The notes under the pieces: generated by a model
What the model was told of the DNA's origin: nothing
The model's database searches: none
The model's input: only the letters and a program-made list of their open reading frames with translations
Sequence record: ON528742
Strand: one strand, 5' to 3'
Length of the DNA: 64,000 nucleotides
Source of the DNA: Shigella phage ESh32
Program-made: the position numbers and the translations under genes
Shown here: piece by piece, positions 598-22,719 of the stretch
How the letters are laid out: each line of letters begins with the position of its first letter
How positions within the stretch are numbered: position 1 is the first letter of the stretch

Positions 598-1137
598 ATG
601 AGAACATTTTTAACTGGTCCTTATCTATCCCTGATGAATGCTTTTACACACCATTCTGATGCTAGAGTAGAAGAAATTTGTAAAAACGAATATATCCCGC
701 CATTTGAAGAATTACTTAAACAGTATTGCACACTTCGACTAGATGGTGGACGTCAATCCGGTAAATCAATTGCTGTGACTAACTTTGCTGCTAATTGGTT
801 GTATGATGGCGGAACAGTTATCGTTCTTTCTAATACTTCAGCTTACGCTAAAATTTCTGCAAATAACATTAAAAAGGAATTTTCGCGTTATTCTAATGAT
901 GATATACGTTTTCGTTTATTTACTGATTCTGTGCGCAGTTTTATTGGTAATAAAGGAAGCAAGTTCAGAGGTTTATCGCTTTCGCGAATTTTGTATATAA
1001 TTGATGAGCCTGTCAAATCTCCTGATATGGATAAGATTTATAGTGTCCATATTGAGACTGTACACTACTGCTGTAATAGTAAATGTTGTATTGGTGGTAT
1101 TACTCGTCCACAGTTTTTCGTAATCGGAATGCAATGA
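598..1137 (+). CDS. small P-loop NTPase-like protein
   Basis: Walker A-like GGRQSGKS and Walker B-like ILYIIDEP in ORF 550..1137; ATG at 598 (17th codon) chosen for spacing to purine-rich stretch. Confidence 0.5.
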   Translation: MRTFLTGPYLSLMNAFTHHSDARVEEICKNEYIPPFEELLKQYCTLRLDGGRQSGKSIAVTNFAANWLYDGGTVIVLSNTSAYAKISANNIKKEFSRYSNDDIRFRLFTDSVRSFIGNKGSKFRGLSLSRILYIIDEPVKSPDMDKIYSVHIETVHYCCNSKCCIGGITRPQFFVIGMQ

Positions 1138-1463
1138 TGACAGACACTCAGCTTTTCGAATATCTTTATTTTTCGCCAAAAACTATTAAAAATAAATTGG
1201 TGAATCATTTTGAAATTTTGGCAAATAACAACGTCTTGAGCGAATTTTATCCTAAGAAATACAAATTACAAAAAGGCGTATTCAAAGGATGCAGAGTTTT
1301 ATGTACTGCTCCTAATGCAAGATTAATGAATAAAATTCCATATTTTACCATGGAATTTATTGATGGACCTTTTAAAGGACTAATCACCCAAAGTTTAATG
1401 GCATATGATTCTGAGCCATTTTTAATTAAAGAACAATCTTGGATAAATTTATTTTCTAATTGA
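1134..1463 (+). CDS. hypothetical protein
   Basis: ORF 1083..1463; internal ATG at 1134 overlaps upstream stop (ATGATGA junction). Confidence 0.5.
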   Translation: MMTDTQLFEYLYFSPKTIKNKLVNHFEILANNNVLSEFYPKKYKLQKGVFKGCRVLCTAPNARLMNKIPYFTMEFIDGPFKGLITQSLMAYDSEPFLIKEQSWINLFSN

Positions 1464-1469
1464 GGTTAT

Positions 1470-1832
1470 ATGAAAGCATATCAAATTCTTGAAGGCACAC
1501 ATAAAGGTACTATTTATTTTGAAGATGGTATTCAAGCACGAATTATTGTTTCTAAAACCTTTAAAGAGGACTCTTTTGTAGACCCAGAAATTTTCTACGG
1601 TTTGCACACCCGTGAAATTGAAATTGAATCACAGCCTACAGTTAAAATTGAAGGTGGTCAACACCTGAACGTAAACGTTCTGCGTCGTGAAACTCTGGAA
1701 GATGCAGTTAAGCATCCGGAAAAATATCCGCAGCTGACCATCCGTGTATCCGGATATGCAGTTCGCTTTAACTCTCTGACTCCGGAACAGCAGCGCGACG
1801 TTATCGCTCGTACCTTTACTGAGAGTTTGTAA
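1470..1832 (+). CDS. grcA: autonomous glycyl radical cofactor GrcA (YfiD)-like protein
   Basis: C-terminus [60 protein letters not shown] with RVSGY glycyl-radical motif; GAGG RBS upstream. Confidence 0.75.
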
Positions 1833-2053
1833 TGGCAAAGATAATTATTGAAGGTTCTAAAGATGTGCTAAATGCTTTCGCCGAGTGGTTTAGTAATTCA
1901 GGCGAACAGCAATTTAACGAAGCCTGGAATATGGGTGATATTGATGGAATTTATCCTACGACAGAAATTTCTGTTCAAGGATATGGCATTCATGAACCTA
2001 TTCGTTTAGTTGAATATGATTTATGTACTGGTGAGGAAGTCAAATATGATTGA
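1832..2053 (+). CDS. hypothetical protein
   Basis: 73-codon ORF; ATG overlaps upstream stop (TAATG). Confidence 0.5.
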   Translation: MAKIIIEGSKDVLNAFAEWFSNSGEQQFNEAWNMGDIDGIYPTTEISVQGYGIHEPIRLVEYDLCTGEEVKYD

Positions 2054-2312
2054 AGACATTAAAGGTTATAAGCCGCATACTGAAGAGAAAATCGGTAAAG
2101 TGAATGCTATCAAAGACGCTGAAGTTCGTTTAGGACTTATCTTTGATGCTTTATACGATGAATTTTGGGAAGCATTTGATAGCTGTGAAGACTATGAACT
2201 CGCGAAGAATTATGCTGAAAGCCTCGATCAGTTAACTATTGCTAAAACGAAACTCAAAGAAGCCAGTATGTGGGCTTGTCGTGCAGTGTTCCAACCAGAG
2301 GAAAAATACTAA
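2046..2312 (+). CDS. hypothetical protein
   Basis: ORF 2010..2312; ATG at 2046 preceded by GAGG. Confidence 0.5.
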
Positions 2313-19964: not shown

Positions 19965-20438
19965 ATGTTATTGACTGGCAAATTATATAAAGAAGAAAAA
20001 CAGAAATTTTATGATGCACAAAATGGTAAATGCTTAATTTGCCAACGAGAACTAAATCCTGATGTTCAAGCTAATCACCTCGACCATGACCATGAATTAA
20101 ATGGACCAAAAGCAGGAAAGGTACGTGGATTGCTTTGTAATCTCTGCAATGCCGCAGAAGGTCAAATGAAGCATAAATTTAATCGTTCTGGCTTAAAGGG
20201 ACAAGGTGTTGATTATCTTGAATGGTTAGAAAATTTACTTACTTATTTAAAATCCGATTACACCCAAAATAATATTCACCCTAACTTTGTTGGAGATAAA
20301 TCAAAGGAATTTTCTCGTTTAGGAAAAGAGGAAATGATGGCTGAGATGCTTCAAAGAGGATTTGAATATAATGAATCTGACACCAAAACACAATTAATAG
20401 CTTCATTCAAGAAGCAGCTTAGAAAGAGTTTAAAATGA
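19965..20438 (+). CDS. 49: endonuclease VII (Holliday-junction resolvase)
   Basis: 157 aa; matches remembered T4 gp49 (MLLTGKLYKEEKQKFYDAQNGKCLICQREL...). Confidence 0.9.
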   Translation: MLLTGKLYKEEKQKFYDAQNGKCLICQRELNPDVQANHLDHDHELNGPKAGKVRGLLCNLCNAAEGQMKHKFNRSGLKGQGVDYLEWLENLLTYLKSDYTQNNIHPNFVGDKSKEFSRLGKEEMMAEMLQRGFEYNESDTKTQLIASFKKQLRKSLK

Positions 20439-22252
20439 CAATTGAAAAAGAAATTGAAGGATTGATTCATAAAACTAATAAAGACCTTTTAAACGAGAAT
20501 GCTAATAAAGATTCTCGTGTTTTTCCAACTCAACGGGACCTTATGGCTGGTATTGTGTCTAAACACATTGCCAAAAATATGGTCCCGTCTTTTATTATGA
20601 AAGCGCATGAAAGCGGAATTATCCATTTCCATGATATTGATTATTCCCCTGCTCTTCCATTTACTAATTGCTGTTTAGTAGATTTAAAAGGAATGCTTGA
20701 AAACGGATTTAAGCTAGGTAATGCGCAGATTGAAACTCCTAAATCAATTGGCGTTGCTACTGCAATTATGGCACAAATTACTGCGCAAGTTGCTTCCCAT
20801 CAATATGGCGGAACGACTTTTGCGAATGTAGATAAAGTACTTTCTCCTTATGTTAAACGCACCTATGCAAAACATATTGAGGATGCAGAAAAATGGCAAA
20901 TCGCTGATGCGTTAAATTATGCTCAATCTAAAACAGAAAAAGATGTATACGATGCATTCCAAGCTTATGAATATGAAGTAAATACTCTCTTTAGTTCAAA
21001 CGGACAAACGCCTTTTGTAACAATTACATTTGGTACGGGAACTGACTGGACTGAACGAATGATTCAGAAAGCAATTCTGAAAAATCGTATTAAAGGTCTT
21101 GGTCGTGATGGGATAACTCCTATTTTCCCTAAGCTTGTTATGTTTGTTGAAGAAGGTGTTAATCTTTATAAAGATGATCCGAACTATGATATTAAACAGC
21201 TTGCTCTAGAGTGCGCAAGCAAAAGGATGTATCCTGATATTATTTCAGCTAAGAACAATAAAGCTATCACTGGTTCATCTGTTCCTGTTTCTCCGATGGG
21301 TTGCCGTAGTTTCTTGAGCGTATGGAAAGATTCGACTGGCAATGAAATTCTTGATGGACGTAATAATCTTGGTGTTGTAACACTGAATCTTCCTCGTATC
21401 GCATTAGATTCTTATATTGGAACACAGTTCAATGAACAGAAATTTATCGAATTGTTCAATGAACGAATGGATTTATGTTTTGAAGCTTTGATGTGTAGAA
21501 TTAGTTCCTTAAAAGGAGTTAAAGCGACTGTTGCTCCTATTCTTTACCAAGAAGGTGCATTCGGGGTTCGTCTTAAACCTGATGACGACATAATTGAGTT
21601 ATTTAAAAACGGTAGAAGTTCAGTGTCTTTAGGATACATTGGTATTCATGAATTGAATATTCTTGTCGGTCGTGATATTGGACAAGAAATTTTAACTAAA
21701 ATGAATGCTCGTCTTAAGCAGTGGACCGAAAGAACCGGTTTTGCTTTTAGCTTGTATTCTACTCCTGCTGAAAACCTTTGCTATCGCTTCTGTAAACTTG
21801 ATACTGAAAAATATGGAAGTGTAAAAGATGTTACTGATAAAGGCTGGTACACTAACAGTTTCCACGTTTCAGTAGAAGAAAATGTTACTCCGTTTGAAAA
21901 GATTTCTCGTGAAGCGCCATATCATTTCATTGCGACAGGTGGTCACATTTCTTATGTTGAACTTCCTGATATGAAAAATAACTTAAAAGGTCTTGAGGCT
22001 GTATGGGATTATGCCGCACAACATTTAGATTATTTTGGTGTTAATATGCCAGTGGATAAATGTTTTACATGTGGAAGTACCCATGAAATGACTCCTACTG
22101 AAAACGGATTTGTTTGTTCTATTTGTGGAGAAACTGATCCTAAAAAGATGAACACAATAAGAAGAACATGTGGTTATTTGGGAAATCCGAACGAACGCGG
22201 ATTTAATCTCGGTAAAAATAAAGAAATCATGCATAGGGTTAAACACCAATGA
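20435..22252 (+). CDS. nrdD: anaerobic ribonucleoside-triphosphate reductase, intronless
   Basis: 605 aa; C-terminal Zn ribbon CxxC...CxxC and glycyl-radical motif RRTCGY. Confidence 0.95.
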   Translation: MTIEKEIEGLIHKTNKDLLNENANKDSRVFPTQRDLMAGIVSKHIAKNMVPSFIMKAHESGIIHFHDIDYSPALPFTNCCLVDLKGMLENGFKLGNAQIETPKSIGVATAIMAQITAQVASHQYGGTTFANVDKVLSPYVKRTYAKHIEDAEKWQIADALNYAQSKTEKDVYDAFQAYEYEVNTLFSSNGQTPFVTITFGTGTDWTERMIQKAILKNRIKGLGRDGITPIFPKLVMFVEEGVNLYKDDPNYDIKQLALECASKRMYPDIISAKNNKAITGSSVPVSPMGCRSFLSVWKDSTGNEILDGRNNLGVVTLNLPRIALDSYIGTQFNEQKFIELFNERMDLCFEALMCRISSLKGVKATVAPILYQEGAFGVRLKPDDDIIELFKNGRSSVSLGYIGIHELNILVGRDIGQEILTKMNARLKQWTERTGFAFSLYSTPAENLCYRFCKLDTEKYGSVKDVTDKGWYTNSFHVSVEENVTPFEKISREAPYHFIATGGHISYVELPDMKNNLKGLEAVWDYAAQHLDYFGVNMPVDKCFTCGSTHEMTPTENGFVCSICGETDPKKMNTIRRTCGYLGNPNERGFNLGKNKEIMHRVKHQ

Positions 22253-22719
22253 ATTACGATAGATTTTATCCTTGCGATTTTGTTAATGGCCCTGGTTGCA
22301 GGGTCGTTCTTTTCGTTACAGGTTGTTTGCATAAATGCGAAGGGTGTTATAATAAATCAACATGGAATGCTAGAAATGGTATTCCATTCACTGGTGAAAC
22401 ACTAGAACAATTAATTGAATGTTTGAATAATGATTATATGGAAGGATTGACTATAACCGGAGGAGACCCTCTCTATCCTGATAACCGAGATGTTATTCAC
22501 TCTGTAGTTCAAACTATTAAAAATCTTTATCCCAATAAAAGCATTTGGTTGTGGACAGGATATAAGTTTGAAGATATTAAACAGCTAGAAATGCTTAAAT
22601 ATGTTGATGTTATTATTGATGGGAAGTATGAGAAAAATCTTCCGACCAAAAAGCTGTGGCGAGGATCAGATAATCAGCGACTTTGGTCAAATACCGATGG
22701 GGTGTGGACACATGATTAA
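22249..22719 (+). CDS. nrdG: anaerobic RNR activating enzyme (radical SAM)
   Basis: CLHKCEGC radical-SAM-type Cys cluster; ATGA overlap with nrdD. Confidence 0.9.
   Translation: MNYDRFYPCDFVNGPGCRVVLFVTGCLHKCEGCYNKSTWNARNGIPFTGETLEQLIECLNNDYMEGLTITGGDPLYPDNRDVIHSVVQTIKNLYPNKSIWLWTGYKFEDIKQLEMLKYVDVIIDGKYEKNLPTKKLWRGSDNQRLWSNTDGVWTHD

Follow-up and report, generated by a model that had tools for sequence, protein, structure and literature searches.

Gene vs.6 and its two halves

The 64,000-nucleotide stretch of Shigella phage ESh32 (sequence record ON528742) analyzed here, called the window below, carries at positions 1470 to 1832 on the plus strand an open reading frame (ORF) of 120 amino acids that corresponds to vs.6 of T4-type phages. 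Its product is the UniProt entry Y06I of T4, to which the window protein is identical at 117 of 120 amino acids (97.5%), and is a homologue of GrcA, the autonomous glycyl radical cofactor of Escherichia coli. We consider it very likely, with a probability of about 0.88, that this gene is a T4-type vs.6 encoding a spare part for pyruvate formate-lyase (PFL) and that it has been patched from the host by recurrent recombination with grcA.

Between positions 1000 and 2400 the window is 99.9% identical to Phage NBEco003 and 97 to 98% identical to many Tequatrovirus (T4-type) genomes. The gene order in Escherichia phage AR1 is e, ip4, vs.8, vs.7, vs.6, a vs.5-equivalent ORF, vs.4, vs.3, regB, vs.1, vs, and tk.4, and T4 has the same order from vs.8 to tk.4. 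The vs.6 product is named "conserved hypothetical protein" in the GenBank record of T4, orthologues in related phages are annotated as vs.6 or GrcA, and the RefSeq name is GrcA. The gene encodes a small stand-alone protein with its own start, stop, and putative Shine-Dalgarno sequence. The Pfam family Gly_radical (PF01228) matches residues 60 to 101 (E value, 2.3e-18), TIGR04365 is the best-scoring family (E value, 1.3e-45; residues 20 to 120 aligned), and the GrcA structure 6OWR in the PDB is matched with an E value of 9e-42. Neither the gene nor its family is new, and the biochemical role of the product was already known. Relative to its T4 counterpart, with which it shares the gene itself, the vs.8-vs.7-vs.6-vs.5-vs.4-vs.3-regB context, and the E. 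coli-type 3′ segment described below, the window gene differs by three amino acids and a few silent changes.

BLASTN matched grcA in all 5,426 complete E. coli genomes, and positions 1648 to 1832 of the window agree with it at 181 of 185 nucleotides (97.8%), the same figure as for T4 vs.6. Upstream of 1648 there was no BLASTN match to any of the 5,426 genomes. In a pairwise alignment, identity drops off directly 5′ of 1648 and directly 3′ of the stop codon. The only mismatches to E. coli grcA are at 1754, 1823, 1826, and 1827, so that positions 1648 to 1822, referred to here as the tract, are identical at 174 of 175 nucleotides; the sole mismatch inside the tract, at 1754, is the third base of the radical-glycine codon (GGA versus GGT). 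Over residues 61 to 120 the protein is identical to E. coli GrcA. The proportion of synonymous differences (pS) between the window and E. coli is 0.72, which is saturated, in the 5′ half and 0.087 in the 3′ half.

A breakpoint test, with vs.6 of Karamvirus Pet-CM3-4 as the phage-type parent and E. coli grcA as the host parent, placed the junction between 1646 and 1655 (Fisher P value of 8e-21, uncorrected, with 112 breakpoints tried). Up to 1646, 62 of the 71 informative sites agree with the phage parent and 9 with the host parent; from 1655 on, 41 of 42 agree with the host parent. Base composition shifts at the same place as this breakpoint, as does codon usage. From the 5′ half to the 3′ half the G+C content (GC) rises from 0.33 to 0.49 and the GC at third codon positions (GC3) from 0.20 to 0.43. 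The 3′ half uses CTG for five of six leucines, CCG for all three prolines, and CGT or CGC for all six arginines; in the long ORFs of the window CTG makes up 8% of leucine codons and CCG 17% of proline codons, the preferred codons being TTA and CTT for leucine and CCT and CCA for proline. Other 61-codon stretches of the long plus-strand ORFs have a mean GC3 of 0.24 and a maximum of 0.426, and none reaches 0.43.

We conclude from these alignments that vs.6 is a mosaic in which an old, phage-adapted grcA allele is joined to one from the host. The original prediction had described a chimeric gene whose 3′ half, near-identical to E. coli grcA, was a recently captured host fragment, and had proposed a BLASTN search and a composition profile across the ORF as checks. 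The search returned significant nucleotide identity, the composition is not uniform, and the richer GC and the CTG, CGT, and CCG codons of the 3′ half stand out against the AT-rich 5′ half as described; near-identity, host-like composition, and the low pS of the 3′ half support a recent capture.

The predicted "phage-type" 5′ half needs a more particular description. It is diverged and AT rich, and it is not an unrelated phage domain: aligned by itself with residues 28 to 66 of GrcA, it has 36% amino acid identity over 39 amino acids (E value, 6e-6), and by this similarity it is a deeply diverged homologue of the N-terminal half of GrcA. At the nucleotide level it is 73 to 75% identical to the 5′ halves of vs.6 in Jiaodavirus and Karamvirus. 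A host allele has therefore overwritten part of an older phage grcA, with no fusion to an unrelated sequence. Like E. coli GrcA (YfiD; PDB 6OWR; TIGR04365), with its weakly homologous N-terminal half, the product is a small stand-alone radical-domain protein. It differs from E. coli GrcA in being 7 residues shorter and in having an N-terminal deletion (the SFWLLD segment is absent), with about 36% identity in that part, and its gene lies in a phage operon without the host gene's own promoter and regulation. The radical domain of vs.6 also aligns with GrcA2 and GrcA3 (NCBIfam NF008341 and NF038360; E values of 6e-27 to 6e-31), which consist of the radical domain alone, about 80 amino acids, whereas the vs.6 protein keeps the N-terminal half.

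Table 1. Coordinates of vs.6, its parts, and other genes of the window discussed in the text
Feature	Position	Strand	Basis
vs.6 (Y06I) coding sequence, phage autonomous glycyl radical cofactor (GrcA homologue), 120 amino acids	1470..1832	+	ORF, Pfam, TIGR04365, PDB 6OWR
GAGG, probable Shine-Dalgarno sequence of vs.6; overlaps the vs.7 TGA stop (1461..1463)	1462..1465	+	Sequence reading, inference
Phage-type 5′ half, residues 1-59 and first base of codon 60; AT rich	1470..1647	+	GC3, pS, GrcA homology
Host-derived tract, glycyl-radical domain residues 61-118	1648..1822	+	174/175 nucleotides versus E. coli grcA
RVSGYAV radical motif	1743..1763	+	Translation
Codon of radical glycine G95, equivalent to GrcA G102	1752..1754	+	Alignment to GrcA, PflB
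Final 10 nucleotides of ORF, 3 mismatches to E. coli; 3′ edge of host tract	1823..1832	+	Alignment
vs.7 ORF, upstream neighbor; phage composition, without host similarity	1083..1463	+	ORF list, BLASTN
vs.5 ORF, downstream neighbor; without host similarity	1832..2053	+	ORF list, alignment
nrdD, class III anaerobic ribonucleotide reductase	20435..22252	+	PF13597, E value of 1.6e-171
nrdG, radical-SAM activase of NrdD	22249..22719	+	Fer4_12 and Radical_SAM matches

The TAA stop of vs.6 (1830 to 1832) overlaps the ATG of vs.5 (1832 to 1834) in the sequence TAATG, through which vs.5 is translationally coupled to vs.6. A scan for promoters and terminators around vs.6 returned sites no more numerous than in shuffled sequence. 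The terminal mismatches, GAG AGT TTG, were considered as a Shine-Dalgarno sequence for vs.5; this was dropped as a general claim, since T4 has GAA and Shfl2 has AGC CTG there. As listed, the vs.7 ORF (126 amino acids from its first ATG) exceeds the T4 annotation of vs.7 (330 nucleotides) and overlaps by 55 nucleotides the end of vs.8, which lies at 550 to 1137 on the plus strand; the true start of vs.7 is probably an internal ATG. Two genes downstream of vs.6, the ORF at 2010 to 2312 (plus strand) is the equivalent of T4 vs.4, and in the related record PV857777 a gene within this interval is annotated "anti-CBASS protein 2." Directly upstream of nrdD, with a 4-nucleotide overlap, the ORF at 19965 to 20438 (plus strand) is recombination endonuclease VII, the ordinary T4 gene 49, based on Pfam Endonuclease_7 and the T4 endonuclease VII dimerization domain.

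Donor, direction of transfer, and the older phage allele

A matrix of tract identities was computed over the first 158 nucleotides of the tract. Phage tracts are 98.1 to 100% identical to E. coli, about 92% identical to Citrobacter, and 82 to 83% identical to Salmonella, a gradient that points to E. coli or a very close relative as the donor. The tract of Shigella phage Shfl2 is identical to E. coli at 158 of 158 positions and, through the stop codon, at 184 of 185, the sole difference being GAA>GAG.

Near-identity by itself gives no direction, and E. coli might in principle have received the 3′ half of its grcA from a T-even phage. The synonymous divergence (dS) between E. coli and Citrobacter grcA is 0.50 in the 5′ half and 0.42 in the 3′ half, that between E. 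coli and Salmonella is 0.99 and 0.90, and in both halves E. coli grcA is evenly diverged from four genera, Citrobacter, Salmonella, Enterobacter, and Klebsiella. It follows that the mosaic is not in the host gene, which sets the direction of transfer as host to phage. Moreover, the tract uses the codons favored by the host, its composition is out of line with the rest of the phage but not with that of the host, and all 5,426 E. coli genomes have the sequence, in the context ung-grcA-eamB. Against this evidence the reverse transfer retains practically no likelihood.

Scarcely more credible is a single capture of the whole host grcA, after which the 5′ half would have diverged fast and the 3′ half would have been frozen by purifying selection, without intragenic recombination. 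Such a history would account for the homology of the 5′ half to the N-terminal half of GrcA, and in every host and phage the protein sequence of the radical domain is indeed very strongly constrained. Protein constraint, however, does not hold silent sites, and phages with nearly the same domain are only 72 to 85% identical in nucleotides. The contrast in pS between the 3′ half and the 5′ half of one gene (0.087 versus 0.72) contradicts a single whole-gene capture, and the 5′ half has orthologues in other genera that are joined there to phage-adapted or Klebsiella-type 3′ halves.

Homologues of vs.6 were found by tblastn in 1,591 phage records. The syntenic vs.6 of Karamvirus has a phage-adapted 3′ half, with a GC3 of 0.28 and 72 to 78% identity to any host over 158 nucleotides, which is the level given by protein conservation alone. 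Nor was there near-identity to any host in the 3′ halves of T5-like phages, the jumbo phage SE_PL, a Krischvirus, and the Aeromonas phage PX29; in the T5-like, jumbo, and Aeromonas phages this half is likewise phage adapted. In the history that we propose, the ancestors of the T-even phages would have carried an old, AT-rich, phage-adapted grcA homologue. In Tequatrovirus and Mosigvirus, which infect E. coli, homologous recombination with the host chromosome would have replaced the radical-domain segment (1648 to approximately 1822) with that of E. coli grcA; phage-type sequence would have been left in the 5′ half and in a few codons at the end. The origin of the tract by host overwrite can, by sequence comparison, be regarded as demonstrated.

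A tract at least 95% identical to that of the window is carried by approximately 640 phage records, among them Tequatrovirus, Mosigvirus, and RB69, which rules out an assembly artifact. The 5′ halves of the phages with an E. coli tract have identities to the window down to 86%. For some Mosigviruses the BLAST matches to grcA run 38 nucleotides further upstream and 7 nucleotides past the stop codon; these are extensions through low-identity sequence, and the junction does not differ.

Between the window and four Mosigviruses, dS is 1.0 to 1.35 in vs.7, above 1.9 in vs.5, 0.41 to 0.57 in the 5′ half of vs.6, and 0.12 to 0.15 in the tract. Within Tequatrovirus, comparison of the window with Shfl2 gave a pS of 0.24 in the 5′ half and 0.025 in the tract (P value of 0.006). 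Given this low divergence, the tract postdates the split of the phages that share it, and it must therefore either have spread from phage to phage or have been converted repeatedly from the E. coli gene, which is nearly invariant. The shared 5′ junction is uninformative on this choice, because it coincides with the point at which any phage allele and any host allele start to resemble each other in nucleotide sequence.

The Tequatrovirus Escherichia phage vB_EcoM_Nami (locus L102:421-783) has a 5′ half 96% identical to that of the window and a tract with 13 scattered differences from E. coli grcA, compared with 1 to 7 in the other phages examined. The excess could reflect faster decay or a different donor allele. 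A scan of IMG/VR with the conserved first 26 nucleotides returned 6 loci, which were used as extra sequences and are too few for population statistics.

Jiaodavirus tracts and recurrence

The Klebsiella-infecting Jiaodavirus provides a second case. Phages PKO111 and JD18 have an orthologous phage-type 5′ half (73 to 75% identical to the window) in the same synteny, and the 3′ half of Jiaodavirus vs.6 has a GC3 of 0.55 to 0.62. This 3′ half carries the signature TLLDAVEHPEKY, which is typical of the GrcA of Klebsiella, Raoultella, and Salmonella and differs from the E. coli signature. Among 80 GTDB host loci there was no close donor of a Jiaodavirus tract, the best being Pseudocitrobacter at 92.4%.

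The donor type came to light only in a metagenome collection, which, scanned with a 38-nucleotide sequence of the Jiaodavirus tract, yielded 37 loci, 34 of which are bacterial contigs of up to 1 Mb encoding full-length GrcA, many labeled as human gut assemblies; the others are two Jiaodavirus contigs and one too short to classify. Three of the bacterial contigs were compared (L104, L106, and L107), and their flanks are shared with host references, the nearest being Klebsiella and Raoultella. The Jiaodavirus contig L127 has flanks 98.5 to 99% identical to JD18, and its tract is identical at 158 of 158 positions to that of L107, a Klebsiella-like gut bacterium that represents the commonest bacterial type; its 5′ half is unrelated to the grcA of L107. 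The tract of JD18 matches a second bacterial allele, that of L106, at 98.1%, and the tract of L114 is closest to a Raoultella metagenome-assembled genome (MAG), at 94.9%. For PKO111, a phage of Klebsiella oxytoca, there was no close donor within the compared set. With the grcA of L107 as the query, 106 phage records matched at 95 to 99% over approximately 170 nucleotides and E. coli phages at 87%.

Three of the host loci have peculiarities of their own. Contig L105 (UERU01012342.1; human gut, low coverage) encodes a GrcA with a 13-residue deletion in the variable, N-terminal half, in which AVSKLGEIEYREI is missing, probably through an assembly error. The GrcA encoded by locus L040 (NZ_JBQPOM010000029.1), labeled Vagococcus sp. 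WN89Y, a Gram-positive organism, is 91% identical to the E. coli protein, which points to a contaminated assembly. The 275-kb "plasmid unnamed4" of Klebsiella sp. WOUb02 (L031; NZ_CP170105.1) carries a grcA whose product has 92% protein identity to that of E. coli, in which the gene is chromosomal.

The two groups of phages each resemble their own hosts. Tracts of E. coli phages are 98 to 100% identical to E. coli and 86 to 88% identical to the Klebsiella-like sequences, and those of Jiaodavirus phages are up to 100% identical to Klebsiella-like sequences and 82 to 87% identical to E. coli. Tract diversity in E. coli phages and Jiaodavirus tracks the hosts and not the phages. Within Jiaodavirus, comparison of L127 with L114 gave a pS of 0.05 in the 5′ half and 0.29 in the tract (P value of 0.007), the reverse of the pattern in E. 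coli phages. We count at least two independent replacements from host to phage, and probably more. The same replacement would have occurred independently in Jiaodavirus, with donors from the Klebsiella clade and with different host alleles in different phages, and the tract would be templated recurrently by whichever host a phage lineage grows on.

The same data could come from one capture per phage lineage, followed by vertical descent and decay without repeated templating by the host. The apparent 5′ junction common to the approximately 640 E. coli phages would be expected from such a history. Two further findings favor it and tell against continued templating: Tequatroviruses isolated on Yersinia, Serratia, and Hafnia retain the E. 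coli-type tract, from which it follows that conversion is not fast, and the substitutions in the tract are mostly from GC to AT, as simple decay toward phage composition after the capture would give. One capture per lineage does not, however, explain why the tract is far less diverged than the flanking genes between Tequatrovirus and Mosigvirus, and less than the 5′ half within Tequatrovirus, nor why Jiaodavirus presents the opposite picture, with matches to different host alleles (100% to L107, 98.1% to L106, and 94.9% to Raoultella). The 3′ edges differ as well: the resemblance of Shfl2 to E. coli extends through the stop codon, that of most others ends approximately 10 nucleotides earlier, and in Jiaodavirus identity to the host stops approximately 25 nucleotides before the stop codon, compared with approximately 10 nucleotides or less in Tequatrovirus. 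There are also four-gamete conflicts among the phage tracts. We therefore regard one capture per lineage as unlikely, though of all the rivals it is the one to be taken most seriously.

Recurrent replacement from the host thus remains the preferred account, and as read from these comparisons the conversion is recurrent on an evolutionary scale; its frequency is a separate matter, and the claim of recurrence is limited to that scale. We put forward only tentatively, at somewhat less than even odds, a stronger version in which the tract evolves in concert with the grcA of the current host through repeated gene conversion, with 160 to 175 nucleotides of perfect homology easing further conversion.

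The nearest parallel described is that of psbA and psbD in cyanophages, in which a phage copy of a host metabolic gene contains patches with host-like G+C content that arose by recombination with the host copy (Sullivan et al. 2006, PMC1484495). In contrast to those genes, vs.6 belongs to enterobacterial T-even phages and has one sharply bounded patch at the edge of a protein domain; this patch is 99 to 100% identical to the current host, and the patches of closely related phages come from more than one host genus. In the literature searched there was no report of the 3′ half as a nucleotide copy of host grcA, or of a Klebsiella version in Klebsiella phages, which is absence of evidence only.

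Function of the vs.6 protein and the relation to NrdD

Wagner et al. 2001, as cited in PMC8683613, showed that E. coli YfiD and T4 Y06I act as "spare part" proteins of 14 kDa: the PFL-activating enzyme puts a glycyl radical on them, and their complex with oxygen-cleaved PFL regains activity. In the accepted mechanism the radical at G102 of GrcA abstracts a hydrogen from C419 of PflB (PMC12338860). In a PDB search, residues 58 to 120 of vs.6 aligned with residues 697 to 759 of PflB (E value, 4e-26), the C-terminal glycyl-radical domain (PDB 1H16 and 2PFL) that shares the motif and that GrcA replaces after cleavage by oxygen. Unlike that domain, the phage protein is free-standing, at 14 kDa, and not part of an 85-kDa enzyme, and its nucleotide donor was grcA, not pflB. 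From its 97.5% identity to T4 Y06I, the vs.6 protein of the window should rescue oxygen-cleaved PFL in the same way. The host activase PflA would install the radical on G95 of the C-terminal domain, a mimic of PflB residues of approximately 697 to 759, and the protein would dock on PFL cleaved by oxygen at G734 and restore its activity. A virulent phage shuts off host transcription and so would have to bring its own stoichiometric spare part; the benefit would be that production of acetyl-CoA, ATP, and formate is kept running under micro-oxic conditions, and the formate might also serve as the reductant of the phage's own NrdD.

The presence of NrdD, an oxygen-sensitive glycyl-radical enzyme, had led the original prediction to see in vs.6 a spare radical domain for that enzyme, which oxygen also cleaves at the radical glycine. 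Both proteins have the Pfam Gly_radical domain, and some homologues lie among nrd genes. In the Salmonella jumbo phage SE_PL (L006:1-2324) the homologue stands between nrdD and nrdG, in the order nrdD-grcA-nrdG; in PX29 (L009:1-2160) it follows nrdD-nrdG and precedes nrdC, in the order nrdD-nrdG-vs.6-nrdC-nrdH; and in Krischvirus UPWr_E1 (L007:1492-2693) it adjoins nrdC. Nolan et al. 2006 (PMC1524935) listed vs.6 among 11 T4 ORFs of unknown function conserved in all five T4-like genomes compared, noted its Gly_radical domain, and suggested a role in nucleotide metabolism. The sequence evidence did not support a spare part for NrdD: the module is of the PFL/GrcA type, BLASTP against the NrdD of the window gave no significant similarity (E value, 2.6), and among PDB matches at an E value of 0.001 or less there was no NrdD structure, GrcA (9e-42) and PflB 697-759 (4e-26) leading. 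The tract copies host grcA, which serves PFL; T4 Y06I rescues PFL in the published biochemistry (Wagner et al. 2001, as cited in PMC8683613); and the homologues inside nrd operons carry the PFL-type motif too, with RVSGYAV kept in SE_PL, PX29, and UPWr_E1. A spare part for NrdD is, on balance, very improbable.

PFL is the cell's source of formate. It is also the reductant of the class III ribonucleotide reductases characterized so far, among them the type found in E. coli and T4 (PMC4493059, citing Mulliez et al. 1995). Production of formate by PFL and its use by NrdD would explain why grcA stands beside nrdD-nrdG in unrelated phages. In the literature searched, no paper was found that makes this connection between PFL, formate, and NrdD for a phage grcA.

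Several points weigh against reading vs.6 as a PFL spare part patched recurrently from the host. The TIGR04365 score of the protein, 154.8 bits, lies below the 170-bit equivalog cutoff, owing to the diverged N-terminal half. Among E. coli phages, a single capture with spread from phage to phage cannot be separated from several captures. The donor contigs of Jiaodavirus are called "Klebsiella-like" here; the references nearest to them, a Klebsiella MAG, a Klebsiella sp., and Raoultella, are at 83 to 90% nucleotide identity. In the literature consulted, no experiment was found on a benefit of vs.6 to the phage in vivo, and the link to NrdD through PFL-made formate is an indirect and interpretive, if plausible, one.

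What is new is the evolutionary anatomy of the gene, a recurrent host patch of 175 nucleotides at 99 to 100% identity in the best-studied family of virulent phages. In this patch, recombination of a strictly lytic phage with the chromosome of its host is seen cleanly and can be dated, in parallel with the psbA mosaics of cyanophages, and the patch offers a simple experimental system for measuring the frequency of such recombination. For the repeated occurrence of phage grcA beside nrdD-nrdG there is now a concrete explanation open to testing, namely, that PFL would supply the formate used by NrdD. In metagenomes, the tract may indicate the host species of T-even phage contigs. If it does evolve in concert with the grcA of the current host, it would be a natural record of the recent host species of a virulent phage and would show directly that, in nature, recombination of strictly lytic T-even phages with host chromosomes is frequent enough to be of consequence.

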